Virus record (IMG/VR): IMGVR_UViG_3300006100_001445 | Source of the DNA: an uncultured virus (IMG/VR IMGVR_UViG_3300006100_001445) | Lineage: Duplodnaviria; Heunggongvirae; Uroviricota; Caudoviricetes | Length of the DNA stretch: 64,000 nucleotides | Direction: 5' to 3' (one strand) | Part shown: positions 538-53,331 of the stretch, piece after piece | How positions within the stretch are numbered: the stretch's first letter is position 1 | Layout: every line of letters begins with the position of its first letter | Position numbers and translations under genes: made by a program | The notes under the pieces: generated by a model | Database searches by the model: none | The model's input: the letters and a program-made list of their open reading frames with translations, nothing else | What the model was told of the DNA's origin: nothing

Positions 538-1371
538 TTAGTCTGTAGAAGCGTTAGCGCCACACTTGGCACGTTTTGCATTGGTCAATGCACCAAAGTC
601 CACTGGCCATTCTTTGCCGGGCTGTAGTTCAACACCGCCTTGTGGCAATGCAAACTTAACACCTGCGTCCTGCATAATTGTAGCAACAGGAACACGGAAC
701 TTGGTCAAATCGTTGCCCAAGTTAGGATATGGTGCTGTGTGTGGAAAACCCCAGCCTGCATATTCTTTGGTTTGATTGTTGATAACAATTTTGTAGAAAC
801 CGTGTGGTACAACTACACCTTTACCAATGGTTTTATCGCCAGGACCATACAAACCGCCCGCAATAACTGTGTAGCTCTGATTTCTCTGGACTGACCATCC
901 GCGGACAGAAGTCTCCAACAATTTCCAAATTCCGCGATTTAAAGAACCGGCTTGTGGTGACATATTTGTCATTAAAAAACTTTCGTACTCAACTTGCGGA
1001 TCCCAACTTAAGTCGCCGTCTGGTGCCATATGACCTTTGTCGTAACCGGTACCAGCATAGTCAGCTGGGGTAGCACCGTTAGGTACAAATTGGTTGGCAG
1101 CAAATGCGTTGGTACGTGCCACACAGCCTAGTGCGTTCTGTGGCAGTAGCTCATACATCACATAGTTAGGTAACTTGGCAGCTGCATCGTAACCTACCAA
1201 ATATGCCTGTTGGCATAAGGGTTGTAGCTGACGTGCTGACTGTGGAAAACCGTAAGGTGCGTGTACTTGACAGTTTTGTACCGGGAATGGCTGACGCTGT
1301 GTCCAAGCACTGGCTGTTGTTGCTGTTAAGCCTGCAACAGCAAAAGTTAAAATTGCTAATAGTTTTTTCAT
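538..1371 (-). CDS. secreted DNA/RNA non-specific endonuclease (NucA/EndoG family)
   Basis: Signal peptide; GYDKGHMAP and TNMSPQAGSLNRGIWK motifs. Confidence 0.9.
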   Translation of the reverse strand: MKKLLAILTFAVAGLTATTASAWTQRQPFPVQNCQVHAPYGFPQSARQLQPLCQQAYLVGYDAAAKLPNYVMYELLPQNALGCVARTNAFAANQFVPNGATPADYAGTGYDKGHMAPDGDLSWDPQVEYESFLMTNMSPQAGSLNRGIWKLLETSVRGWSVQRNQSYTVIAGGLYGPGDKTIGKGVVVPHGFYKIVINNQTKEYAGWGFPHTAPYPNLGNDLTKFRVPVATIMQDAGVKFALPQGGVELQPGKEWPVDFGALTNAKRAKCGANASTD

Positions 1372-1382
1372 AGTTGAAAATC

Positions 1383-1406
1383 TCCTTGTGTATTATTTAA
1401 CAAGGA
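1383..1406 (-). promoter_or_regulatory. late promoter TAAATA in the loop of an RBS-sequestering hairpin
   Basis: TCCTTGT-TAAATAatac-ACAAGGA(G); the 3' arm carries the SD of the nuclease gene. Confidence 0.65.
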
Positions 1407-1413
1407 TCAGCTG

Positions 1414-1968
1414 TTAGCCGTAAATTTCTTGATACATCCAGGTGTAGTTTTGCAACCAAGTATGGAATATGTTGCGTTGCTGAATGCCCATTTCTTTGAC
1501 CACTGTGGTCCAGCTGGCAGGATCCAAATCAATTTGCACTTCGCTATCACCGTACATACTGCGGGGTTTTAACCCGTGTTTTTGGCACAAGTGTTGAATT
1601 GGCTTGTTCCATCCCAGGCAATGCATAAACAGTTCTCGGTAACCACGATTACGTGCCCAAATCAAGGCCTGCTCCAACATGATGTTGGCAATGCCTTGGC
1701 CACGATATTCGGGTGCAACTATAACACCAAATTCTACCTGTTTGCCACTGACAGCAATGTGTAAGGTGCCGACCCATTTTTTGCGATTTCGTGCCACTAG
1801 AATATAGTGATTGTTGGATGAGGAGCTGATACGATCTATTAGACTGTCAATGATGTTGTCGTTGCTGGCTGTACCAAAATACAACTCTTTGGTTTCGTCA
1901 TTCTGACTTTTTAGCCAATCACCATATTTGTTGAATTTAGTGCAAGGTAAAAATTCAGTGATGATCAT
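1414..1968 (-). CDS. GNAT family acetyltransferase
   Basis: EFGVIVAPEYRGQGIA acetyl-CoA motif; start moved to ATG 1968 (MIITEF), 1 nt after the upstream micro-ORF stop. Confidence 0.85.
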   Translation of the reverse strand: MIITEFLPCTKFNKYGDWLKSQNDETKELYFGTASNDNIIDSLIDRISSSSNNHYILVARNRKKWVGTLHIAVSGKQVEFGVIVAPEYRGQGIANIMLEQALIWARNRGYRELFMHCLGWNKPIQHLCQKHGLKPRSMYGDSEVQIDLDPASWTTVVKEMGIQQRNIFHTWLQNYTWMYQEIYG

Positions 1969-1969
1969 T

Positions 1970-2065
1970 TTAGTACCAGTAGTGACCTTGTTTGATGGCT
2001 GCCGCACGAACTTCTTGTACCAAACGAATTGCTTCGTATATCTCTGCTAGAAGTTTACGCATCAT
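1970..2065 (-). CDS. 31-aa microprotein MMRKLLAEIYEAIRLVQEVRAAAIKQGHYWY
   Basis: GGAGG SD, ATGA overlap with the upstream ORF; not in the ORF track. Confidence 0.65.
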   Translation of the reverse strand: MMRKLLAEIYEAIRLVQEVRAAAIKQGHYWY

Positions 2066-2151
2066 AGGCCTCCTAGATAGGAGTCGTGACGGCAAGTTTT
2101 ACCTGCGTACTTGTTTAGGAATTCGGCGATTTTTGAAATTAGCAATAGCAT
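2062..2151 (-). CDS. 29-aa microprotein MLLLISKIAEFLNKYAGKTCRHDSYLGGL
   Basis: TAATG coupling to the upstream ORF and ATGA coupling to the downstream ORF. Confidence 0.55.
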   Translation of the reverse strand: MLLLISKIAEFLNKYAGKTCRHDSYLGGL

Positions 2152-2315
2152 TATACGGTTCTCCCGCAGATGCCACGGCTCAAGTATTGAACAGTCAGGC
2201 GCTCAACATCGGCTACGTTTTGTGGATTCTTGCTGGTAATGTAAGAATCTAGATCAGAGCTTACTGATCCTGTGAAGTTAAAAAACTGGATAAGTTTTTG
2301 TATAATTGTTGTCAT
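2151..2315 (-). CDS. 54-aa small protein, DUF3563-like
   Basis: AAAGGA SD; LDSYITSKNPQNVADVERL resembles the DUF3563 pattern (by eye). Confidence 0.65.
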   Translation of the reverse strand: MTTIIQKLIQFFNFTGSVSSDLDSYITSKNPQNVADVERLTVQYLSRGICGRTV

Positions 2316-2363
2316 TGTGTGACTTCCTTTCGAGTATAATCATTAGTGTTTGTACTATTAGTG

Positions 2364-2395
2364 ATTATACTGATATTTATCACGCAATGCAACAA
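2364..2395 (-). promoter_or_regulatory. sigma70 promoter with PhaR-like box over -35 and TAAATA in the spacer
   Basis: TTG-TTGCAT-tgcgtgaTAAATAtcag-TATAAT, 17-nt spacer. Confidence 0.6.
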
Positions 2396-2420
2396 ATTAT
2401 ATTAAACTTTTGTGACCGTT

Positions 2421-3011
2421 TTACCGTTTTGTGATGATCCGGTCTACCAAACCGTATGCTACTGCTTCTTCGGCATTCATAAAGAAGTCTCGTTCCATAT
2501 CGGCTGCAAATTCGTCGTAGGTTTTGCCTGCAGAGTTGTGCTTGACATAAATTTCGGTCAAGTAATGTTTCATTTTCAAGATTTCTTGTGCTTGGATCTG
2601 AATATCGGTTGCTTGTCCACGAGCCCCGCCCGACGGTTGGTGAATCATATGACGAGCGTGTGGCAGTATGAATCGTTTGCCTGCAGCTCCGGCTGTACTC
2701 AGTAGACTGCCCATACTGCAAGCCTGCCCCATCACAATGGTGCTGACATCAGGCTTGATAAACTGTAGTGTATCGTATATCGCCATACCTGCTGTAACGC
2801 TACCACCGGGGCTATTAATGTAGAATAGGATGTCTGCATCGGGATTTTCGCTTTCTAAAAATAACAACTGTGCTACCAGTAGACTAGAAGTGTGCTCGTT
2901 TACTTCGGTATCCAGCATCACAATGCGGTCTTTTAACAGTCGTGAGTATATGTCGTATGAACGTTCGCCATTGGCGGTTTTTTCGAGAACAATAGGTACT
3001 AGATTAGGCAT
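2421..3011 (-). CDS. clpP: ATP-dependent Clp protease proteolytic subunit
   Basis: [28 protein letters not shown] (catalytic Ser), MIHQPSGG. Confidence 0.97.
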
Positions 3012-3039
3012 AATTCCTCTTTGATTGGTTATTTGTAGT

Positions 3040-3068
3040 AGTGTACTAGATTTGTGTTAAGATGTCAA
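3040..3068 (-). promoter_or_regulatory. sigma70 promoter for clpP
   Basis: TTGACA-N17-TACACT. Confidence 0.6.
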
Positions 3069-3553
3069 CACTTGCGGAAATCTTGGTGTTTGAACCAACG
3101 CTTTTGTCCGTACCATTGTTTCAGGTGTAGGCCATAGTAATCAAAGCGTTCACGCCACATAAAGAAGTCTGGGCCGTGAGCGCCGCTGCGTTTGTTCATT
3201 TTACCGCCGTGATATTCAAAGCGGTGTATGTCCCATTGGTACTGGTGCACCATTTCGTGGGCCAGAGTTTGTATAAACCACTGTGGGCAAAACCATTTGT
3301 CCATAATCTTAATAGTACAATAACTACCGGTATCGTCGTAGTCATCTTCCCACTGACAAAATCCCCAGGTTTGGCGTCGACTGCCCTGTGTAATTACCGG
3401 CTTGCGTAATCGGTTGTCAAACAGGTATCGATTGCAGATATTATATACGTAGTTTATATCTTCGTAGCTAGGACGGAACTGTAGCCTACGTTGATACGTA
3501 ATGCCCGGAAGTGGAGCTTCCATAATTGCTCTAATGGGATTTGGTCTTGCCAT
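3065..3553 (-). CDS. SprT-like zinc metalloprotease
   Basis: TLAHEMVHQYQW (HExxH) and HGPDF; N-x-x-LF motif. Confidence 0.85.
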   Translation of the reverse strand: MARPNPIRAIMEAPLPGITYQRRLQFRPSYEDINYVYNICNRYLFDNRLRKPVITQGSRRQTWGFCQWEDDYDDTGSYCTIKIMDKWFCPQWFIQTLAHEMVHQYQWDIHRFEYHGGKMNKRSGAHGPDFFMWRERFDYYGLHLKQWYGQKRWFKHQDFRKC

Positions 3554-3556
3554 AGA

Positions 3557-3600
3557 AATGCCCTCGCTAAGGTATTTATAATATACCCTAGGAGAGCATT
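3557..3600 (-). promoter_or_regulatory. late promoter TATAAATA within a long RBS-occluding hairpin
   Basis: AATGCTCTCCTAGGGTAT-at-TATAAATACCTTAGCGAGGGCATT then tct-ATG. Confidence 0.65.
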
Positions 3601-3628
3601 ATTACTACTTTATTACATCATTAACGGC

Positions 3629-4363
3629 TTAGTTATTGATTGTAACTTGTCCTACCACAGCACCGGGCTTTTTAAGGGCTTCTTCGCGACGTGCTTTGTA
3701 CTCAGCGTTTTCTACTGGCATTAGGTTAAGAGTACCACTGGTACCGTCGGGACGAACTACACTGACTTCGGGACCTTTTTGTACAGCGACCGGAGCAACT
3801 TCGCTTTCACCAACCGGCTTGTTGCCGGTAATTTCATCCAGTTCGCGGAATGCTTCTTTGCTGTTACGCATTGTTTCTTTGCTGGACTTCATCACATTGG
3901 CACCGCCCATTGGTAGTGCAACTAGCACATAGGTACGAATACGATTGCCTTCGGCCACGTGTTTCATCTCTACAGTTTCTACACCGGTAATGTCAATGTC
4001 TGCACAGATGCTACGGATAGCTGTTTCGCTCTGTTCAGTGCTGGTAGTTCCGTTGTCACTCATAAACACTTTGGTCTGGCTACGAACCTTGCCGCCAGCG
4101 GCTGTACAAATTTTGCTGTAGGCAATAGTTTTAGCTTTGAGATCTGCCATACCGAAGTCACCTGAGGTAGCTGTACCATTTTCATACACAGCATTTGCAC
4201 TCTTAGGCAACTTGCTCATCCACTCCGGCGCTTCACTAATAGCCGACTTCATATTGCTAGCAGTCTGCGGATTAGCATAAGCATCGTTTTTTGAGTATTG
4301 ACCGGTTGTACCACAGGCACTCAATAAACCTGCTACTGCTACTACGATTGCTAACTTCTTCAT
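3629..4363 (-). CDS. lipoprotein (LPP20-like)
   Basis: Lipobox LSAC after a hydrophobic leader; APEWM motif. Confidence 0.7.
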   Translation of the reverse strand: MKKLAIVVAVAGLLSACGTTGQYSKNDAYANPQTASNMKSAISEAPEWMSKLPKSANAVYENGTATSGDFGMADLKAKTIAYSKICTAAGGKVRSQTKVFMSDNGTTSTEQSETAIRSICADIDITGVETVEMKHVAEGNRIRTYVLVALPMGGANVMKSSKETMRNSKEAFRELDEITGNKPVGESEVAPVAVQKGPEVSVVRPDGTSGTLNLMPVENAEYKARREEALKKPGAVVGQVTINN

Positions 4364-4412
4364 ATTACACCTCTTGTGGTTGAATTACAATAACTACAGT
4401 TTAACATTATGG

Positions 4413-4976
4413 CTAAAATTTGTCAATCACTCGCCATTTCGAATTGGGTGATCCATCAGCCTGACAAACTACACCTTGGTACACTATCAGGTTACGATCC
4501 CTGGGATCACGTTCCTGGAACAGGCGACATTTGGTTCGCTTGTACCAAAAATACCTGCGCTCTTGTGGATTACTGTGCAGGTCCGTTTCACTTTCCCATA
4601 CAGTTTCACCAATGTGTACTGGACGTACTCGAATTTCGGGCAAGTCACTGCATACCATTTGCATATCTGCACTGACCGATTTGGGTTCAATTTCACTCAA
4701 TACCCGACCTTGTCCTATGTCCATTGCACGAGTGCAACTTTCTGATTCAGTACGGCCCACAGCCGATCCTTCTGCTGTGTGCCAGTCGCCGCCAATGTTC
4801 ACACGATATCTAACTGTGCATTTGAATCCACCAGCATCTGGTGTTGCCAGTCGTTGTACGTCAGTTGGGCCGGCTTCAACTGTCTGTCTGGTCATACGAA
4901 TGGTAGATCTTGTATAACAGTCTGCTAGGGCTGTAGAACTTACCAAAACCAACCCAACAATCAAGGCACGTTTCAC
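4413..4976 (-). CDS. secreted Cys-rich hypothetical protein
   Basis: Signal peptide ending ALA; several Cys. Confidence 0.7.
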   Translation of the reverse strand: MKRALIVGLVLVSSTALADCYTRSTIRMTRQTVEAGPTDVQRLATPDAGGFKCTVRYRVNIGGDWHTAEGSAVGRTESESCTRAMDIGQGRVLSEIEPKSVSADMQMVCSDLPEIRVRPVHIGETVWESETDLHSNPQERRYFWYKRTKCRLFQERDPRDRNLIVYQGVVCQADGSPNSKWRVIDKF

Positions 4977-5260
4977 GATTTGTACCTGTCAGGGTTACTG
5001 CAACCTATACGCAGGCTCCAGATCATTGATCGTACAGTAGCGTTATACTTGCGATCCGCATCTGCAAGCTGTTCGGGTTCGGCGTTTGACAAGCCCTTCA
5101 TACGCAACTGCTCTTCAAGAAAATTCACGTGCCGGTCTATCCTGGCACAATCTTGATTGGTTACCTTGACTGCATCCAATTGCTCGTAGGTAGCCGATCG
5201 ATATGGGTTGTTTGCACAACCTACCAACGACAGCACAACGATGGCAACTGAATATTTCAT
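4973..5260 (-). CDS. small lipoprotein
   Basis: Lipobox LVGC. Confidence 0.7.
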   Translation of the reverse strand: MKYSVAIVVLSLVGCANNPYRSATYEQLDAVKVTNQDCARIDRHVNFLEEQLRMKGLSNAEPEQLADADRKYNATVRSMIWSLRIGCSNPDRYKS

Positions 5261-5493
5261 TACTTTTCGGCAATCGCAATAAGTCTAGCAAGATGGTAGT
5301 TGATAATTTTTTGTTTGATAGTATCAACCACATTGAGATATGGCCATTCCACAATGAACGGACAGCCCTTGGCCCATTTGCTTTCGGTTACAAAATTTTG
5401 ATATATTTTCAAATCTTCAGCACTGGCAGGATTGAATTCTCTTTTGGGCCAAAAACAATTACTAACAAGAAACTTTTTCTTATTTTCTTCCAT
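5260..5493 (-). CDS. hypothetical protein
   Basis: 77 aa, AAGGT SD, coupled to the next gene; WAKGCPF..EWPY motif. Confidence 0.65.
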   Translation of the reverse strand: MEENKKKFLVSNCFWPKREFNPASAEDLKIYQNFVTESKWAKGCPFIVEWPYLNVVDTIKQKIINYHLARLIAIAEK

Positions 5494-5550
5494 ACGGTCA
5501 CCTTTTATAAAATTAAAGACACTACACTATAACATTTTAACATATTCTAG

Positions 5551-6081
5551 TCAAATCAGTTCCACCGTGCTACCTCGGGCACGATTGTAAAACACGTGAT
5601 TACCAATTTGGCCTGCTTCGTGTGCCGGGTCAACCCAATGCGGATCTCGAATATAGATCGCGTGGTAAAACAAACTTTTTGTCAATCCACGAATACGGTG
5701 TCCTGCCAAGACTTTACGAGCAATATCTTCAGATTCGGCCCATAACCGACTATCTGGACGTGGTAATTTTCGAGCCATTGTCCACGAAAACTGTTTACGA
5801 GCATACACCACTTTACAAATACTGTCGCCCCAATAGCCTGTTTTAAGTCGGTTGATAGTGACTTGGGCTACTGCAAACTTTCCCAATTGGGATTCTACGC
5901 CGGCCTCATAGTAAATATTCCGAGTAAGACACTCTACATCCGTTTTGGTATATTTGATATGCTCTTTGACCTGAATCACGTCGTCAATCTTTTCTTCTAG
6001 AATGTCCATACGAACTTCTTGACGAACAAGCAGAACGGCAAGTAGACTACAGCCAATTATGGCCAGCATACGATTTGACAT
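5551..6081 (-). CDS. SleB-like cell wall hydrolase (Hydrolase_2)
   Basis: CLTRNIYYEA, AVAQVTINR, ICKVVY..QFSW, IGNHVFY; N-terminal TM; start at MSNRML. Confidence 0.92.
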   Translation of the reverse strand: MSNRMLAIIGCSLLAVLLVRQEVRMDILEEKIDDVIQVKEHIKYTKTDVECLTRNIYYEAGVESQLGKFAVAQVTINRLKTGYWGDSICKVVYARKQFSWTMARKLPRPDSRLWAESEDIARKVLAGHRIRGLTKSLFYHAIYIRDPHWVDPAHEAGQIGNHVFYNRARGSTVELI

Positions 6082-6082
6082 A

Positions 6083-6412
6083 TTAAGCCTTTGGAATACG
6101 ATAAGTGACACCTTGTGGGCTAGAGGCTTTTTTGTAACCCAATGCTTCGTACTCGGCTTCAAGGTACTGTAAGTTTTCACGATTTTTTACATACGCACGA
6201 TCCACTTTAACTGCAATAAATTTTTTGCGATAGTTGATGTGAATAGCACGAGCATAGTAAACCAACTCTAATGCAAGAGCCATACGATCTGCGGCAATTT
6301 TTTGCTGTTCTGAATAATGCGAAGATTCAACAATGTTACGCATACGAGCATCACGTGCCGCGGCATACGCATACGATCCTGCTGATTTAGTTTCCAAATC
6401 TGTTTGATTCAT
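6083..6412 (-). CDS. hypothetical early protein
   Basis: 109 aa; AAGGAG SD; directly downstream of the repeated early promoter. Confidence 0.7.
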   Translation of the reverse strand: MNQTDLETKSAGSYAYAAARDARMRNIVESSHYSEQQKIAADRMALALELVYYARAIHINYRKKFIAVKVDRAYVKNRENLQYLEAEYEALGYKKASSPQGVTYRIPKA

Positions 6413-6440
6413 TCCGGCTCCTTTTATGTACTGTAGAGCT

Positions 6441-6471
6441 AGTATAGCATTTTGGCAATTTTGGGTCTACC
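6441..6471 (-). promoter_or_regulatory. repeated phage early promoter, copy 1
   Basis: TAGACC-caaaattgccaaaaTGc-TATACT; 20-mer identical to the copies at 41.95 and 42.25 kb. Confidence 0.8.
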
Positions 6472-6485
6472 GAAATTGCGGCCGT

Positions 6486-6511
6486 AAAAAAGCCCCATAT
6501 TTTGGGGCTTT
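6486..6511 (-). terminator. intrinsic terminator of the phasin-like gene
   Basis: AAAGCCCCA-aaata-TGGGGCTTTTTT. Confidence 0.75.
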
Positions 6512-6535
6512 GGAGTGTGGCTTTTTTACAACAGA

Positions 6536-6754
6536 TTACTTAGTTGTGAAGAACTTGGTGTAATCAACGGTCTTAACAGTTTCAACCACTTGTTTAGCCA
6601 ATTCTAAGTTTGTTTCGTACACAGTCTTAGTAAAGTCTGCATATGAGTCCACTAGAGTTTCTAGGTTAGCACGGATGGCTTTGTCTTCAACGTATGTCAA
6701 AGGTGTCTTTGTTGCTGTTACTGCCTGGTCTACTACTGATTTGAAATTAAACAT
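6536..6754 (-). CDS. phasin-like small amphipathic protein
   Basis: 72 aa, Ala/Thr/Val-rich amphipathic helix; own promoter with TGC-rich box and own terminator; family call is inference. Confidence 0.55.
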   Translation of the reverse strand: MFNFKSVVDQAVTATKTPLTYVEDKAIRANLETLVDSYADFTKTVYETNLELAKQVVETVKTVDYTKFFTTK

Positions 6755-6761
6755 TTTATTT

Positions 6762-6812
6762 TTCCTTTATTAAGCGAATGTTTTACAAGACCCAAACTAT
6801 TCGGCATCTTGC
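6762..6812 (-). promoter_or_regulatory. ROSE-like structured 5' leader
   Basis: Hairpin GCAAGA-TG-CCGAA-TAG-TTTGG-G-TCTTGT, then TTCGCTT-aata-AAGGAA (bulged G opposite SD). Confidence 0.55.
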
Positions 6813-6831
6813 TTACTGCTACTATTTTCAT

Positions 6832-6863
6832 AGTATAACATTATTTACCTTGCGGTGCAACAA
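6832..6863 (-). promoter_or_regulatory. sigma70 promoter with PhaR-like box over -35 and TAAATA in the spacer
   Basis: TTG-TTGCAC-cgcaaggTAAATAatgt-TATACT, 17-nt spacer. Confidence 0.6.
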
Positions 6864-6929
6864 TTTAATAATTTTATTTGTCCATTTAGCTCACTAAATA
6901 ATACTATCTATTCGAATAGGAGATTTAAA

Positions 6930-7175
6930 ATGGATTTTACAACAATCGTAGGAATTGTATTAATTTTAGCTATCGCTTATACTCTATTTAGAGCATTCAG
7001 CAAAAAAGAAACTGTTGTTGAAGCTGTTAAAGAAGAAGTTGCTGAAGTCAAAGCTGAAGAAGTCAAGGTAGTAGCTGAAGCAAAACCAAAAAAAGCTCCA
7101 GCCGCTAAGAAAGCTCCTGCTGCAAAAAAGACTCCAGCTAAAAAAGCATCCACACGCAAACCAAAATCTGAGTAA
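6930..7175 (+). CDS. membrane-anchored protein with histone H1-like Lys/Ala/Pro tail
   Basis: AGGAG SD; N-terminal TM; KKAPAAKKAPAAKKTPAKKA. Confidence 0.75.
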   Translation: MDFTTIVGIVLILAIAYTLFRAFSKKETVVEAVKEEVAEVKAEEVKVVAEAKPKKAPAAKKAPAAKKTPAKKASTRKPKSE

Positions 7176-7181
7176 TATTCA

Positions 7182-8270
7182 ATGACATCGCAAGATATTG
7201 GCATTTACATATCTGACGAGTCAAATAGGTTTTTTCATCATCACATTAGACGATCTGTTGGCCCGGGCCAACAGTGGTCTTACTATCGAACTCCATCTGA
7301 TTTAATAAGTCGCAATCACTCTAGAAAAGTTGCTTGTTTGCAAATACCGTATCCGTACGACGACATCATTGAACAACAAATTGACCAGCTGTACGATCAC
7401 GTGGATGCAATCCTGATACTTGGTAGCGAACTTCATATTGTCACTGTTGATTTTATAAGAAAATTTGATCGTCCCAAAATTGAATATTTTATCTGTGGTC
7501 GATTGAATCCACCGTTGCAACACAGTAAAACTCATCTGTTCCTTGAGTGGTTTATGACCACTACACATTTTTACAAAAACATAAGGCCCGAAACACTAGA
7601 CGTACTTCAACCGTATAATACAAAACCTTATGTGTTTGATGCTCTACTAGGACGCAAAAAATTGCACAGAGACAGATCCTACGATTTTATAAAAACAAAA
7701 GGTCTGGCAGACAAAGGTATAGTGACATATATGAATGACATCAATACCACCTTTACAGCAGAAAATTCAAATCAGTGGTTATGGGAAGATGAAGGATTAT
7801 CTGGGCAAGATCAAGTGCAATGGACTGTTGACCCGGTCAACTATTACGGTTATACCATGAGCCTGAGTCAGGTTATTCCGTTGACTGTATACAATCAGAC
7901 CGCATACAGTCTAGTGTGCGAAACCAATTGCGACCAAGACTATGTGTTCTTTACAGAAAAAACAGTCAAGCCAATCTTGGCACGTAGACCATTTATACTG
8001 GTGGCCAATAGATACAGCCTGGCGTTTTTGCGTGAGTTGGGATTTAGAACTTTTGACGGTATCATTGACGAAAGCTATGATGCAGTTGAAGGAATATACA
8101 ATCGTCAATTGACTGCATTGGCACAGTTGAAAGCCTTGTGTGATCAAGATCAGGAAAAAATATTAAACCAATGCAGAGAAATCGTAGATCACAACTTTGA
8201 TTTGATGTACAACACTGATTGGTACGACCGATTCAAGCAGCCATTTGTGGCAGCACTGACTGGTCGTTAG
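7182..8270 (+). CDS. glycosyltransferase-like protein (paralog family 1)
   Basis: YSLVCET..FFTEKTVKPILARRPF..LRELGFRTF..IDESYD shared with 12732 and 54704 ORFs. Confidence 0.6.
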   Translation: MTSQDIGIYISDESNRFFHHHIRRSVGPGQQWSYYRTPSDLISRNHSRKVACLQIPYPYDDIIEQQIDQLYDHVDAILILGSELHIVTVDFIRKFDRPKIEYFICGRLNPPLQHSKTHLFLEWFMTTTHFYKNIRPETLDVLQPYNTKPYVFDALLGRKKLHRDRSYDFIKTKGLADKGIVTYMNDINTTFTAENSNQWLWEDEGLSGQDQVQWTVDPVNYYGYTMSLSQVIPLTVYNQTAYSLVCETNCDQDYVFFTEKTVKPILARRPFILVANRYSLAFLRELGFRTFDGIIDESYDAVEGIYNRQLTALAQLKALCDQDQEKILNQCREIVDHNFDLMYNTDWYDRFKQPFVAALTGR

Positions 8271-31262: not shown

Positions 31263-31738
31263 TATTTTCCTTTTAGGAGCTTCATTGATTCTGCTTCAAC
31301 TACACGTGTACGTAACCCTGAACTGGAGAACGAATGATCACGACGATTAAAGATTGGTCGAATACCACGTACAAATCCTTCTTGCTCGCCGGTGTATGCT
31401 TTGTTTTCGTATTCAACACCTAGTACACGAACATCAATAGGCAGAATTAAGAGCAAGTCGATCAAATCCTGTTCAGTTTGATAAACTACCACTTCGTCTA
31501 CATAACGACAAGCAGCCAATTGGATTTGGCGTTCCACAATGCTCTGTACCGGTTTATTCTTGGTATCGGGACGATCAATAGTGGGATCTGTTTGCAAGCC
31601 AGCAATCAAGTAATCGCAATGATTCTTTGCTTCGGCCAGCATAGCAATATGTCCTGCGTGTAGCATATCAAAGGTACTAAAGGTAATACCAATGCGCTTG
31701 CCTTCGGCCTTGAGCTTTTTAACGTGGTTGAAAATCAT
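31262..31738 (-). CDS. cytidylyltransferase (TagD-like)
   Basis: TFDMLHAGH, ERQIQL..CRYVDEV, HSFSSS. Confidence 0.9.
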   Translation of the reverse strand: MIFNHVKKLKAEGKRIGITFSTFDMLHAGHIAMLAEAKNHCDYLIAGLQTDPTIDRPDTKNKPVQSIVERQIQLAACRYVDEVVVYQTEQDLIDLLLILPIDVRVLGVEYENKAYTGEQEGFVRGIRPIFNRRDHSFSSSGLRTRVVEAESMKLLKGK

Positions 31739-32067
31739 ACGTCTTGTTCAATTTTGACTTGTAAAGGGAATCCGTTGTTGCGAGCCAGCATGGTAACTTC
31801 AATGCCTTTTTGTTCGGCCATTTCATACGGCAATACCGCTACCACAGCCGATCCTTCCTCGTGTACTTGCATCGTCAATGCTTCAGCGGCACCTTGGTCA
31901 TAATTGAATATTACCTTGAGTGTTTCAACTACAAACTCTTGTGTAGTTGTTTCATCATTGATATAGATAACACGGAATTGTGGTGGTTCCTGTATGTTGA
32001 GTTTGGGCTCAATACGTGGACGTATTTCTATGTGTGTTTTGGTTTTTGACATTAAAGTTTCGCTCAT
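31735..32067 (-). CDS. clpS: Clp protease adaptor
   Basis: VIYINDETTTQEFVV, VHEEGSAVV, AEQK, FPLQV. Confidence 0.93.
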   Translation of the reverse strand: MSETLMSKTKTHIEIRPRIEPKLNIQEPPQFRVIYINDETTTQEFVVETLKVIFNYDQGAAEALTMQVHEEGSAVVAVLPYEMAEQKGIEVTMLARNNGFPLQVKIEQDV

Positions 32068-32120: not shown

Positions 32121-32573
32121 TTATTTTGCAAATGTAATGGCAATTTTTTTAGGCTTGTCTTCTTCTGGAACCACTTGTTCCAAAGCAATGGCCAAAATAC
32201 CATTCTTAACTGTGGCACCACGTACTTCAATGTGTTCGGCCAATGGGAAGGTACGAGTAAAGTTTCTAGCACTGATACCTTTGTGCAAGTACTCAACTTC
32301 GGTTTCACGTTTGGCTTGTTCGCCTCGTACAGTTAAGACGTTGTCTTTTAATTCAACATCAATTTCATCTTCAGCAAAACCAGCAACGGCCACTTCGATA
32401 ACATAGTGAGTGTCATCCAGCTTGACCACATTGTGTGGCGGGTAGTTGTCGCTTTTGCTGTTGGCAAAATTGCGATTCAGCTGTTCAAATAAACTGTCAA
32501 AGCCAATGGTCTGGCGATGAATCTGGTTTACGAATGCAGGTAAATCAAGGGTGTGGATTTGTAATTGTGTCAT
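32121..32573 (-). CDS. small heat shock protein (IbpA/Hsp20)
   Basis: IGFDSLF, NYPPHN, AVAGF, YLHKGISARNF, NGILAIAL. Confidence 0.95.
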   Translation of the reverse strand: MTQLQIHTLDLPAFVNQIHRQTIGFDSLFEQLNRNFANSKSDNYPPHNVVKLDDTHYVIEVAVAGFAEDEIDVELKDNVLTVRGEQAKRETEVEYLHKGISARNFTRTFPLAEHIEVRGATVKNGILAIALEQVVPEEDKPKKIAITFAK

Positions 32574-32578
32574 ATTTT

Positions 32579-32632
32579 TCTCCTTTTAAGCAAGTTAATG
32601 ACTAAATGTGTAGCCCGACTATCGGCACTACA
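32579..32632 (-). promoter_or_regulatory. ROSE-like RNA thermometer leader of hsp20
   Basis: TGTAG-TG-CCGA-TAG-TCGG-G-CTACA hairpin, then CTTGCTT-aa-AAGGAG. Confidence 0.6.
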
Positions 32633-32663: not shown

Positions 32664-33323
32664 TCAATTATTTGAAATCCAATTGTGCAACGCATTGGCT
32701 ATTTTTTCGTGTCCCATTTGATTTGGGTGAGAAATGTTGGGAGTAAAATACGGATTGTTTTTTAAAGCACATCCGTGCCGATCCATTTCCAAATTCAACA
32801 GTTCTTGGCAAGTGGTGTGGTAGATTCTAGCACGATCAACTTCGGGCCAGAATGTGTTGTTTTGCCAACCCGGCAAGTAGTAATCTTGTATGTTGTACTG
32901 CCGACAAAGACTCTGCAATACCAGCAAGGTGACGTTGGCTTGATAATCAGCTGATTCGTCGGAATAAAAATACTTGTAGTACAGGTCATTCATTTTTGTT
33001 AATTCGTCGGCAACTGGATCGGGAGGAAAAATACCGCGCGGATTAAATGCTTGATCTACCTGTTGATGATACACAAAAGATCGTTCTTTGGCTGTGAGGA
33101 AAAATACTGCACAATAGCGATTGGCAGGATTGTGATTTTCTTTGAGAAACTTGCGTAGTTGAATTACCAATTGTGGCAAACTGGTGCCAGGACGAGCATA
33201 ATTGCTATAAGTAGATCCACGGTGTTTGGCCAATACTGCAATGTATGGAAACTCTCGTGAGAGATCCAATTCATCACCGTAGGCCCAGCTATCGCCAAAG
33301 CCCAGATAGATTATAGGATTCAT
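32664..33323 (-). CDS. SGNH/GDSL hydrolase-like protein
   Basis: FGDSWAYG ... HPNQMGH. Confidence 0.75.
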   Translation of the reverse strand: MNPIIYLGFGDSWAYGDELDLSREFPYIAVLAKHRGSTYSNYARPGTSLPQLVIQLRKFLKENHNPANRYCAVFFLTAKERSFVYHQQVDQAFNPRGIFPPDPVADELTKMNDLYYKYFYSDESADYQANVTLLVLQSLCRQYNIQDYYLPGWQNNTFWPEVDRARIYHTTCQELLNLEMDRHGCALKNNPYFTPNISHPNQMGHEKIANALHNWISNN

Positions 33324-33574
33324 TAGTACAGTTTTTTGGGTAGGCTTTCGGAAGCTAATTTTTTGCGCCAGCGGTTCTTGGCCGCTGCTTTAGCTTTCTT
33401 ACGTGCTGTGGTGGGTTTTTCGTAGGTTTCGCGTTCTTTTAATTCACGTAGTAGGCCTGATTCCAATACCTTCTTCTTGAATTTACGCATAGCCTTTTCC
33501 ACGTTACCGTCGATGCCGACTGTAACTGTGTTACCTTTACACACAACTGCTGAGCCTTTTTGATAATATGCCAT
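33323..33574 (-). CDS. rpsU: 30S ribosomal protein bS21
   Basis: VEKAMRKFKKKV..GLLRELKERETYEKPTTARK. Confidence 0.92.
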   Translation of the reverse strand: MAYYQKGSAVVCKGNTVTVGIDGNVEKAMRKFKKKVLESGLLRELKERETYEKPTTARKKAKAAAKNRWRKKLASESLPKKLY

Positions 33575-38894: not shown

Positions 38895-38932
38895 TGTTTT
38901 TACCTTTATTTGAGTATTTATGGTAAAAACAA
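38894..38932 (-). promoter_or_regulatory. late promoter in the loop of an 11-bp hairpin covering the RBS
   Basis: TTGTTTTTACC-aTAAATActcaaataaa-GGTAAAAACAA(TG). Confidence 0.7.
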
Positions 38933-38945
38933 AACGAAAGCAGGG

Positions 38946-48492: not shown

Positions 48493-50790
48493 TTAAATCA
48501 CACAGCTATCGCAATCTGCATCATCAGTTGGTGTTTGTTCTACCTGTTGTTGACTTAATTTATCAATGTCAATTTCGCCTTGACCATCATTGGTATTGAA
48601 ATAATACAACTGTTTACCGCCATACTTGTAAAACTGTATTACGTCTTTGAGCATTTCGCTCATTGGAATTTTTTCGTCATCGTAAAAGCGTGGATTGTAG
48701 GATGTGTTTACACTAATACCTTGATCAATGTATTTTTGTAGTACTGCACACAGTTTTAAATAACCTTCGGGACTACGTTGATCCCATAACAATTCATACT
48801 TGTTTTTTAATTTGCGGAACTCGGGTACCACTTGTTTCAGTACACCGTGTTTGCTTTGTTTAACTGACACATAACTACGTGGGGGCTCAATGCCGTTTGT
48901 TGCATTGCTAATTTGAGCACTTGTCTCTGCAGGCATTAGAGCCATTAGGGTAGCATTACGCTGACCAGTAGCTTGTGTTTGAGTACGTAGTTCGTTCCAG
49001 GGCATACGCTCTTGGTGTGGTACCAATTCGTCAATTTCGCGTTTGCGTGTGTCAATAGGAAGAATACCTGCCGACGACTTTAAATCTTTCCAACGACCGC
49101 AGGCACCTTGTTCAACGGCGAGATCAGCTGAAGCTTTTAATAGGTAGTAACTCCAGGCTTCAGCATACTCATCAACCAAGGCCAATGCAGCAGGATCTGA
49201 ATAACTGACATCGTTCTTGGCCAAGAAATAGGCAAAGTTAATAATACCAACTCCTAGTGGACGGAACTCTTCAGTGGCAAGTTCCGCCGCACGTACAGGA
49301 TAATTCTGATAACTCAATAATGCATCTAAACCACGTACTGCCAGTTCACACGGTTTCTGGAAGTCATTTGGGCTTTTTACATTGCCCCAATTGATTGCGC
49401 TCAAGGTACAGAGTGCAATCCTACCATCCTCGTCGTTGACATCCTTTAGTGGAACTGTTGGTAAATCAATTTCACAACAAAGGTTTGACATCTTTACGGG
49501 TGCTACATTTTCATCAAAAGGACTGTGAGTGTTTGCGTGATCTACATTCTGCAAATAGATACGTCCAGTATCTTTGCGTTCCTGCATAAAACGTGTAAAC
49601 AGATCAGCAGCCTTAAAGGTCTTCTTGCGTAACTTGGTGTTACGTTCTGCTCGTTCGTACAACTCTTTGAAGCGTTCTTGGTTATTGAAAAACGCATCAT
49701 ACATTTCAGGTACATCATGAGGACTAAAGCAAGTGATATCCCCGCCTGAAATTAATCGTTCATACATCAATTTGTTAAACTGTACACCATAGTCCATATG
49801 ACGTACACGGTTATCTTCTGTGCCTTTGTTGTTCTTTAGCACAATAAGGTCTTCAATTTCCAAATGCCAGATAGGATAGTATAAGGTGGCGGCACCATTA
49901 CGCACACCACCTTGACTACAACTACGTGTGGCACTTTGGAACAATTTGTAAAAAGGTACAACACCAGTATGATAAGCATCGCCGGATCTGATCGGGCTAC
50001 CTAATGCACGGATACGTCCGGCACCAATTCCAATACCGGCTTTCTGACTAACATACTTGACAATGCTGCTGCTGGTAGCATTGATACTGTCCAGGCTGTC
50101 GTCGGCTTCAATCAGTACACAACTGGAGAACTGTTTCTGTGGAGTGCGTACACCAGCCATAACAGGAGTGGGAAGACTAATGTCTCCAAGACTGATTGCA
50201 TCATAATAATCCTTTACCCAACGTAAGCGTGTGTCTGCAGGGTACGATTGAAATAGAGTGGCCGCTATCAGCATATAGGCCATTTGCGGTGTTTCAAATA
50301 TTTCACCGGTTACGCGATTTTGTACCAAGTACTTGCCACGCCATTGTTCCATGGCCACATAGGTAAAATTCTCATCGCGTTTGTGATCTAGGTACGTGTC
50401 TAGAGTGATCCACTCTTGTTCAGAATAGGCTTCCAATAGACCACGATCATAAAATCCACTTTCCACGTTGCGTTTGACCAATTCCAGCAGTGAGCAAGGA
50501 TTATAATCGTTATAAATTTGTTTACGCAGGTGATAGTTGATCAATCGACCTGCTACGTATTGGTAGTTGGGAGTTTCTTCTGAGATCAAATCTGCAGCAC
50601 TTTTGATCAAGGTTTCTTGAATGTCGGCTGTTCGAATGCCGTTGTAAAATTGTATGTGACTTTTAATTTCTACTTCGCTGGCGCTGACACCTGTAATGCC
50701 TTGTGTTGCCCAAAATACCACTTTGTGTAATTTTTCTAAATCGAGGTCTTCTGTGTGACCTTCCCGCTTTGTAACTTTGATTGATGTCAT
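48493..50790 (-). CDS. nrdA: class Ia ribonucleotide reductase alpha subunit
   Basis: ATP cone; FSSCVL, SNLCCEI, MPAETS, LYYFN, C-terminal CDSC. Confidence 0.98.
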   Translation of the reverse strand: MTSIKVTKREGHTEDLDLEKLHKVVFWATQGITGVSASEVEIKSHIQFYNGIRTADIQETLIKSAADLISEETPNYQYVAGRLINYHLRKQIYNDYNPCSLLELVKRNVESGFYDRGLLEAYSEQEWITLDTYLDHKRDENFTYVAMEQWRGKYLVQNRVTGEIFETPQMAYMLIAATLFQSYPADTRLRWVKDYYDAISLGDISLPTPVMAGVRTPQKQFSSCVLIEADDSLDSINATSSSIVKYVSQKAGIGIGAGRIRALGSPIRSGDAYHTGVVPFYKLFQSATRSCSQGGVRNGAATLYYPIWHLEIEDLIVLKNNKGTEDNRVRHMDYGVQFNKLMYERLISGGDITCFSPHDVPEMYDAFFNNQERFKELYERAERNTKLRKKTFKAADLFTRFMQERKDTGRIYLQNVDHANTHSPFDENVAPVKMSNLCCEIDLPTVPLKDVNDEDGRIALCTLSAINWGNVKSPNDFQKPCELAVRGLDALLSYQNYPVRAAELATEEFRPLGVGIINFAYFLAKNDVSYSDPAALALVDEYAEAWSYYLLKASADLAVEQGACGRWKDLKSSAGILPIDTRKREIDELVPHQERMPWNELRTQTQATGQRNATLMALMPAETSAQISNATNGIEPPRSYVSVKQSKHGVLKQVVPEFRKLKNKYELLWDQRSPEGYLKLCAVLQKYIDQGISVNTSYNPRFYDDEKIPMSEMLKDVIQFYKYGGKQLYYFNTNDGQGEIDIDKLSQQQVEQTPTDDADCDSCVI

Positions 50791-52590: not shown

Positions 52591-52620
52591 ATTACTGTAA
52601 CCTTAATGATAATAATGTAT

Positions 52621-53331
52621 TTATGCAGTAAGGTAGTACAGCTCTACACGTTTGTTCCACTCGTCACAATAATGATCAAATTCGGCGCCTTCCAACACAA
52701 ACTCTTGGTAAACAGGAGTGTCGTAAGAGCCATCTTCCAGCTGTTTAGGCTGTTGACACATAAGGATTACGCCTTTTTTGATGTCGGTTCCGTGCATATT
52801 GTTGTGTGCCTGTGCATAGGCCGCCAACTGTACAAAATAGTCGGTGATATATTCGCGTTTTTTTAATTTGTTGGTTTGTTTGTAGTCCATTATAGCCGGC
52901 TTGTTGTCGTGTACTCCCACCGAATCTGTGGTGCCAGCATATAACCCACTATAATAAACCGGTACTTCAACTCCCCATACTTCATTGACTTTGACAAATC
53001 CTTCCAAGATAACCTGTGCAGCCATGAACCACGAAGGCTGTGCAAACGGGTTAGTTGGAAACTCTTTCATTTCACCAGTTTTAACATAGTGCTCCAAGTA
53101 GCTGTGCATACGTGTTCCACGATTGGCAGCTTCGGTGGTGATCTGCTGTGCTCTAGCTTCCCCGACACTTTTTTTCCAATTAGCCAGTGCGGCTTTGGAT
53201 TCTGCACTTTTGGTCCGGTCCAGGATTGTTGTAACGCTGGGAACTTTGCTGCCGTCTGGTAAACAATAATGTCGTTTGCCGTTGATTGTTTCTCTGTCAC
53301 AAGGTGTATAGTCAAATTTTGGTTTAAGCAT
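52621..53331 (-). CDS. PD-(D/E)XK (Cas4-like) exonuclease
   Basis: PSVTTIL, RGTRMH, YAGTTD, DYKQT, QLAAYA. Confidence 0.88.
   Translation of the reverse strand: MLKPKFDYTPCDRETINGKRHYCLPDGSKVPSVTTILDRTKSAESKAALANWKKSVGEARAQQITTEAANRGTRMHSYLEHYVKTGEMKEFPTNPFAQPSWFMAAQVILEGFVKVNEVWGVEVPVYYSGLYAGTTDSVGVHDNKPAIMDYKQTNKLKKREYITDYFVQLAAYAQAHNNMHGTDIKKGVILMCQQPKQLEDGSYDTPVYQEFVLEGAEFDHYCDEWNKRVELYYLTA

Follow-up and report, generated by a model that had tools for sequence, protein, structure and literature searches.

Can a phage read its host's carbon stores before it switches on some of its own genes? Polyhydroxybutyrate (PHB) and polyhydroxyalkanoates (PHA) serve environmental bacteria as major stores of carbon and energy, and to our knowledge phage sensing or exploitation of them is essentially unexplored. 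The question is raised by a stretch of 64,000 nucleotides (here called the window) from an uncultured virus of the Caudoviricetes (IMG/VR IMGVR_UViG_3300006100_001445). Two minus-strand promoter sites in the window, one ahead of an operon with a GNAT acetyltransferase gene (site 1) and one ahead of the gene for a conserved helical protein of 72 amino acids (site 2), carry a box that resembles the operators of the bacterial repressor PhaR. In bacteria, the binding of PhaR, its titration by PHB granules and the derepression of its targets are established (PMC12849132, PMC12542648). Judged from sequence, the PhaR-type identity of the phage box is well supported, and we lean slightly toward the view that host PhaR represses both composite promoters and is released from them by titration onto PHB granules.

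The window is the reverse complement of positions 27943-91942 of one linear virus record of 157,933 bp (G000), for which CheckV gives a completeness of 43%. Relatives sharing the studied genes are as long as 344-357 kb, with a completeness rating of 100%; G000 is thus a fragment of a freshwater jumbo phage. Site 1 (minus strand, 2395-2364) reads TTGTTGCATTGCGTGATAAATATCAGTATAAT and site 2 (minus strand, 6863-6832) reads TTGTTGCACCGCAAGGTAAATAATGTTATACT. Both have the same layout, namely a 13-nt box, 3 nt, TAAATA, 4 nt, and TATAAT (site 1) or TATACT (site 2), with TTGCAY lying 17 nt upstream of the -10 hexamer. A sequence-only reading had placed two promoters of identical geometry at 2364-2395 and 6832-6863 on the minus strand; this description is exact, and a scan of the whole 157,933-bp record found no third site of that geometry. 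The elements are as follows.

2379..2395, minus strand: PhaR-type box of site 1 (TTGTTGCATTGCGTGAT), read from the sequence
2364..2392, minus strand: predicted promoter elements of site 1, with the -35-like TTGCAT at 2392-2387, TAAATA at 2379-2374 and the -10 hexamer TATAAT at 2369-2364 (spacer 17 nt)
6847..6863, minus strand: PhaR-type box of site 2 (TTGTTGCACCGCAAGGT), read from the sequence
6832..6860, minus strand: predicted promoter elements of site 2, with the -35-like TTGCAC at 6860-6855, TAAATA at 6847-6842 and the -10 hexamer TATACT at 6837-6832

The hexamer pairs (TTGCAT-17-TATAAT and TTGCAC-17-TATACT) have the 16-18 nt spacing of sigma70-type promoters. Their -35-like hexamers match TTGACA at three of six positions only, which is why neither site was listed by a consensus promoter scanner; that scan returned 35 sites against 33.4 expected and is hence uninformative. 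The box overlaps the predicted promoter, covering TTGCAY and stopping where TAAATA begins, and with the -10 hexamer set at -12 to -7, the 17-bp box would occupy about -38 to -22. The two sites are identical at 22 of 32 positions, and since these identities are confined to the named elements, the sites are not a recent duplication. When the composite pattern TTGCANNGCNNNNTAAATANNNNTATAMT was sought in the window with up to three mismatches, it matched twice, at the two sites (0.06 expected; none of 100 shuffles reached two matches). A third exact copy of the 12-mer TTGTTGCATTGC, at 48897 on the plus strand, was set aside as chance: it lies antisense within the ribonucleotide reductase gene, with neither TAAATA nor a -10 hexamer downstream.

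How closely does the box follow PhaR operators that have been described in bacteria? For PhbF, the PhaR homologue of Herbaspirillum seropedicae (Burkholderiales), the motif TG[N]TGC[N]3GCAA is reported inside a 24-bp DNase I footprint, and PhbF represses phaP1 and phbF fusions (PMC3206438). The PhaR palindrome described for Ralstonia eutropha is YTKNTGCRNYGCANMAR, with up to three mismatches accepted and sites lying beside the -35 and -10 elements (PMC12849132). The AniA/PhaR motif given for S. meliloti is WNWD2NYGCRNYGCRNH2WNW, and mutation abolished the shifts in electrophoretic mobility shift assays; the same source cites CTGCNNNGCAG for PhaR of R. sphaeroides (PMC12542648). Site 2 contains the core palindrome TGC-R-N-Y-GCA (alphaproteobacterial form YGCRNYGCR) as TGCACCGCA, whereas the core of site 1, TGCATTGCG, fits YGCRNYGCR but ends in G instead of A. 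The Herbaspirillum motif, TG-N-TGC-N3-GCAA, is exact in site 2 (TGTTGCACCGCAA) and has two mismatches in site 1. Each site has three mismatches to YTKNTGCRNYGCANMAR, all on the right side (right flank or position 13) and within the accepted limit; in site 2 the first 13 positions all fit YTKNTGCRNYGCA, and the three mismatches fall in the right flank.

An independent yardstick came from bacterial phasin promoters. The bacterial searches were centered on one Burkholderiales genome taken from the list of ClpP relatives, and among the sampled genomes of its GTDB order, 39 of 61 carry Phasin_2 (a tally that includes G036). We used 29 of 30 phasin loci, leaving out L190 of G036. Of these 29 Burkholderiales Phasin_2 loci, 28 have YGCRNYGCR in the 300 nt ahead of the phasin gene, and its density is 5.98 per kb there versus 1.00 per kb elsewhere in the same loci. 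Of the 52 boxes in the 300 nt before the start, those in the nearest 200 nt, 45 in all, went into a symmetrized 21-nt matrix, and their consensus is TTTTGTTGCAATGCAACAAAA. Scanned over G000, this matrix ranked site 2 first (13.7 bits) and site 1 second (13.0 bits) of 157,913 positions. Three relatives were scanned as well. In G002 (356,865 bp) the promoter of the 72-aa gene ranked first (21.1 bits) and the intergenic promoter between ClpP and the GNAT operon second (14.9 bits), and in G004 (344,244 bp) the same two promoters ranked first (19.8 bits) and third (14.5 bits). In G003 the 72-aa promoter came fifth (13.2 bits), after four matches in coding sequence. Positions of at least 10 bits numbered 6 in G000, 9 in G002, 16 in G003 and 10 in G004. 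At sequence level, the claim of a PhaR-type box made by the sequence-only reading is thus borne out by three published motifs and an independently derived phasin-promoter matrix.

Two further candidates were rejected. A box-like sequence upstream of the Hsp20 gene (7.9 bits) is absent from G003 and G004 and was taken as chance. Additional regulon members were also sought with TTGCRNYGCR; its occurrence was three- to fourfold above a reversed control in G000-G005, but nearly all matches were intragenic and hence were not counted.

The sequence-only reading had named lack of conservation upstream of homologues among the findings that would refute it; the box is kept in 13 of 17 distinct promoters of 72-aa homologues, at 74-94 nt from the ATG throughout. 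These promoters come from two sets. The close set comprised the window and 10 loci (11 distinct sequences after removal of the duplicates L003, L007, L008 and L014), each scored over 160 nt upstream, and the best score was at least 13 bits in 8 of the 11. Distant homologues (30-50% identity) were found with single-protein queries, of which P0127 yielded no locus and P0141 one partial locus that was left out; here the best score was at least 19.8 bits in 5 of 6 loci. The relatives' boxes reach 19.8-22.6 bits, which is the typical range of bacterial boxes. A variant box, in which an extra base widens the gap between the half-sites (TGCGGTCGCA and TGCAACCGCA are examples), recurs in unrelated lineages.

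Upstream of the GNAT operon, the highest-scoring 21-mer within 700 nt abuts (A)TAAATA in all 12 distinct sequences, with scores of at least 11 bits in 7 of them. The arrangement around the box is not uniform. In L004-type relatives it lies within the spacer between a separate GGTTGCAT and TATAAT, with TAAATA downstream of both; the box is therefore kept independently of a role as -35 element. The pattern TTGCRNYGCN{1,8}TAAATA gave no match in five relatives because their geometry differs.

The second component of the composite sites, TAAATA, recurs across the genome. ATAAATA occurs 47 times in G000 (both strands), and 29 genes have a sense copy within 100 nt upstream. Its usual form is GCATAAATAC, about 20 nt before the start codon (e.g., at 38895-38935 and 52591-52640 of the window), and (A)TAAATA stands 5-90 nt before many genes of G000. 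We take ATAAATA to be a promoter type belonging to the phage itself. At about 29 further promoter-like occurrences of ATAAATA in G000, neither the box nor TTGC is present upstream, and TTGC-N9-TAAATA has four copies in G000 and is intergenic only at sites 1 and 2. The sequence TTGCACTTGCATTTAAATA, 25 nt before a gene outside the window, was dismissed, as it lies inside coding sequence and does not match the matrix. The T4-type late promoter, TATAAATA, is a known parallel. The likeness is the placement of (A)TAAATA shortly upstream of many genes; on the other hand, sites 1 and 2 read GATAAATA and GGTAAATA, and PHROG scans of 241 crude open reading frame (ORF) calls of G000 found none of the T4 core structural genes.

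What do the two promoters stand in front of? Site 1 lies downstream of ClpP (3011-2421), and 49 nt separate its end from the start of the 54-aa ORF, the first of the GNAT operon. From the end of site 2 to the 72-aa ORF the distance is 78 nt, and this site shares a 175-nt intergenic region with a divergent gene. The features concerned are listed here.

2151..2315, minus strand: small ORF 1 (54 aa), the first gene after site 1; protein kept in 5 of 13 GNAT loci of relatives
1970..2065, minus strand: small ORF 2 (31 aa), with an AGGAGG ribosome-binding site and a stop codon that abuts the GNAT start
1414..1968, minus strand: GNAT acetyltransferase (184 aa from the ATG at 1968; Pfam Acetyltransf_1, E 4.2e-13)
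6536..6754, minus strand: conserved helical 72-aa protein, with 230 homologues in metagenomes (E<=0.01)
6785..6812, minus strand: leader hairpin of the 72-aa gene (minimum free energy -10.6 kcal/mol, z -3.63), with a variable outer stem, one unpaired base, an inner stem CCGAA/UUUGG and a 3-nt loop
6930..7175, plus strand: divergent 81-aa gene, whose product has an N-terminal hydrophobic helix and a Lys/Ala/Pro tail (PAAKKA twice, PAKKA once)

The start codon of the GNAT gene was picked by comparison with relatives, and small ORF 1 matched no Pfam or PHROG family. The best 120 listed of the 230 homologues of the 72-aa protein share 72-100% identity with it and lack Pfam domains, some homologues lie on contigs of up to about 380 kb, and a profile search of 1.84 billion representatives returned only 45 clusters, 43 of which are proteins of 63-108 aa. 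A tblastn search with the 72-aa protein against phages gave no match, and a near-identity DNA search of window positions 1400-7200 against GenBank phages gave a single 44-nt match. The AlphaFold model (pLDDT 80.6) predicts a short helix at residues 4-16 and a long one at 21-61. The modeled protein would thus be small and mostly helical as a phasin is, but this feature is non-specific. Foldseek found nothing in the PDB at E<=0.001, and a profile search of PDB sequences gave nothing significant.

By the Pfam family test the 72-aa protein is not a phasin, and Phasin_2 had no match across the whole of G000. The phasin-like label that the sequence-only reading had given this gene is hypothetical, and the signals behind it are weak and sub-threshold. 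Three of 44 family representatives match Phasin_2 at E 0.009-0.019 (15.6-16.7 bits versus a cut-off of 24.9), and among the nearest ESM Atlas clusters the only families with a name are Phasin_2 (0.85-0.86), PHB_acc (0.83) and PHA_synth_III_E (0.79), none of which reaches the 0.9 that the tool treats as a lead only.

The leader of the 72-aa gene folds into a covarying hairpin, with the same fold in all eight tested sequences despite differing outer stems (z -1.6 to -5.1), and it matched no Rfam family. It is followed by a translation start region of the form GCTTAAT..AAGGAG. The Hsp20 leader (32606-32632, minus strand) shares this hairpin module, again with a variable outer stem, an unpaired base, CCGA/UCGG and a 3-nt loop, and the module is also present at L042:17720-17752 and L077:6235-6267 and in leaders in L213-L219. 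As for the divergent gene, a Lys/Ala/Pro-rich ORF occupies this position in 11 of 16 relatives' loci. PhaM and PhaF are described as granule-associated proteins with histone-like Lys/Ala/Pro tails (PMC9049629). The 81-aa protein resembles them in its hydrophobic N-terminus and PAKKA/PAAKKA tail, judged by composition alone; it has no sequence family in common with them, however, and such tails are common low-complexity sequence.

A protein binding these boxes would have to come from somewhere. The PhaR DNA-binding domain PF07879 was not found in G000 or in the five relatives G001-G005 (two of them 100% complete), and a PhaR binder would therefore be the host's. PF07879 is present in all five genomes of the Burkholderiales order that were asked (G006-G009, reached through ClpP, and G035). 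The phage itself has seven tRNAs and a two-piece transfer-messenger RNA (tmRNA) with the tag ANDSQFALAA.

L030:9274-9668 (genome 99274-99668, outside the window): two-piece tmRNA

This tmRNA matches beta_tmRNA (RF01850) with 137.8 bits versus a gathering score of 84, which points weakly to a betaproteobacterial host. In the sample of 61 Burkholderiales-order genomes (G036 included), beta_tmRNA exceeds the cut-off in one, G035, whose tag is ANDERFALAA and which also carries a PhaR gene and two boxed phasin genes. The nearest bacterial relatives of the phage ClpP, at 60-65% identity, include many from Burkholderiales and also spirochaetes. A ClpP 82% identical to the phage's is encoded on contig NZ_JBBAKG010000036.1 (62.5 kb; L086) of a Haliscomenobacter metagenome-assembled genome, which lacks PF07879; the contig is probably a misbinned relative of this phage.

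ClpP is one of an unusual set of protein-quality-control genes in G000, alongside GroES/GroEL, Hsp20, a ClpS-like adaptor, a ClpA/B-like ATPase, the tmRNA and ribosomal protein S21. The PHROG scans also found PhoH, ribonucleotide reductase and replication genes, with most ORFs left without a family.

32121-32573, 33323-33574, 31735-32067 and 2421-3011: protein-quality-control genes in the window (2421-3011 is ClpP)

Contigs from lake-water RNA (4 libraries, 4 studies) cover only 6523-6802 and 6992-7148, at 90-97% identity, in runs that were found via the same stretch. Such contigs cannot show transcript starts and their libraries may hold DNA, so cover here, or its lack over 1300-6500, is uninformative on promoter use.

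Taken as a mechanism, each site would combine a sigma70-like -35/-10 pair, TAAATA inside the 17-nt spacer and a PhaR-type operator over the -35 element. The binder would most likely be host PhaR (also known as PhbF or AniA). In a host without granules, PhaR sitting on roughly -38 to -22 would shut both promoters. RNA polymerase exclusion by bound PhaR is described for phaP1 (PMC12849132), and a PhaR dimer bound to the phage sites would be expected to act in the same way. In a PHB-loaded host, PhaR would be titrated away and both promoters would fire, site 2 yielding the 72-aa protein and site 1 the operon of two small ORFs and GNAT. We infer binding, repression, relief by PHB and the roles of the products, and our leaning toward this PHB-sensing control is a modest one. 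The sequence-only reading had also supposed that sigma70 and late transcription are blocked together. Such a dual block follows from the geometry in G000; it is not general, since in L004-type relatives TAAATA lies downstream.

The resemblance to bacterial PhaR, PhbF and AniA operators at phaP and phaR promoters (Burkholderiales and Alphaproteobacteria) extends to the same motif, AT-rich flanks, a position over or beside -35/-10 and, as putative target, the gene of a small helical protein. The phage box differs in sitting in a genome without phaR, joined to a phage-type TAAATA, and in standing before the gene of a product that is no Pfam phasin. The phage also has one box per promoter, whereas within 200 nt the 29 bacterial loci have one box in 14 cases, two or more in 14 and none in 1.

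Several observations weigh against control by host PhaR. The core of the matrix was imposed by the selection regex, and only its flanks (T at -7, G at -6 and T at -4) were learned. The window boxes are weak, as their 13.7 and 13.0 bits are on a level with the bottom 3 of the 45 training boxes (median 20.7), and only their left half-site is good. Elsewhere, four of the 17 promoters of 72-aa homologues (L002, L009, L011 and L218) have the half-sites one base wider apart and score below 3 bits, and boxes at the relatives' GNAT promoters are weaker, with 2.3-8.9 bits in 5 of the 12 distinct loci. On the protein side, the 72-aa protein had no match to Phasin_2 (PF09361) at E<=10, and hhalign against the 29 Burkholderiales phasins gave a probability of 2.2% (E 0.022), or 6.1% (E 0.0061; columns 29-58 versus 28-57) with the wider family alignment. 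The host assignment is affected as well: ClpP is as close to spirochaete proteins as to those of Burkholderiales, the loci of G035 have about 61% GC versus 43% for the phage, and the tmRNA of the Melnitz phage is reported to resemble another class than that of its host (PMC9004378).

The likeliest of the rival explanations is that the box is the operator of a different regulator, phage-encoded or a host factor, that prefers TTGC-N3-GCAA and is unconnected with PHA. PhaR has no monopoly on short TGC/GCA palindromes, a function is known for only a minority of the roughly 240 phage ORFs, and in 4 of 17 promoters the half-sites are N4-spaced, an arrangement to which a PhaR dimer is poorly suited. 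We nevertheless hold this unlikely, because the likeness includes the learned flanks of the phasin boxes, the relatives' boxes score as typical bacterial ones do, and the sole family-level leads of the 72-aa protein are all PHA-granule proteins.

One may also do without a regulator and see in the shared 13-mer mere promoter architecture (a -35 hexamer, an AT-rich UP-like flank and an upstream extension of the TAAATA promoter). The spacing of TTGCAY to a good downstream -10 is indeed exactly 17 nt, other promoter-like sites of G000 commonly have GCA immediately ahead of TAAATA, and several GNAT loci lack TATAAT yet have TTGC about 9 nt before TAAATA. Against this, the other ATAAATA sites do without TTGC and the combination is intergenic at these two sites only, the L004-type box stands apart from the -35 hexamer, and the palindromic right half (YGCAAC) is kept in relatives though no promoter element needs it; we consider such an account improbable. 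That the box is an inert relic, with gene and promoter captured long ago from a bacterial phasin locus, seems to us very improbable. The weak phasin-like signals of the 72-aa gene and the resemblance of its promoter to a bacterial phasin promoter would suit a relic, but the box keeps its fixed distance down to 30% protein identity while adjacent bases diverge, and a second, unrelated operon (GNAT) is boxed too.

If host PhaR does act on these promoters, a broader and more doubtful picture can be drawn, which we regard as possible rather than probable. A widespread freshwater jumbo-phage lineage would tap the PHB sensor of its host through a conserved module made up of the operator, the dual promoter, the hairpin, the mini-phasin-like 72-aa protein, the PAKKA-tail gene and the boxed GNAT operon. 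This module would fire only in granule-loaded cells, and its products would act on the granules (carbonosomes), for example by mobilizing carbon for phage production or displacing host granule proteins.

Phage genes under host nutrient regulators are known: cyanophage pstS and phoA stand under host PhoB, and NtcA sites occur in cyanophage promoters. Control by host PhaR would resemble this wiring in that lytic phage promoters carry the site of a host transcription factor and expression tracks host nutrition. It would differ in that the signal is a storage polymer, sensed by titration of a repressor onto granules, and in that the genes concerned are not recognizable enzymes of that pathway. The sequence-only reading knew of no description of such control in phages, and among the titles listed by our full-text literature searches there was likewise no report of PhaR-type or PHA-responsive control there; two seeming matches came from the word 'phasing'. 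The phage may thus read its host's carbon reserves before expressing the 72-aa protein and the acetyltransferase operon. If host PhaR indeed controls both promoters, this would be a lytic phage reading a storage-polymer signal via a granule-titrated repressor, and it would open a route, starting from function, to a phage protein family that is very common and still unannotated.

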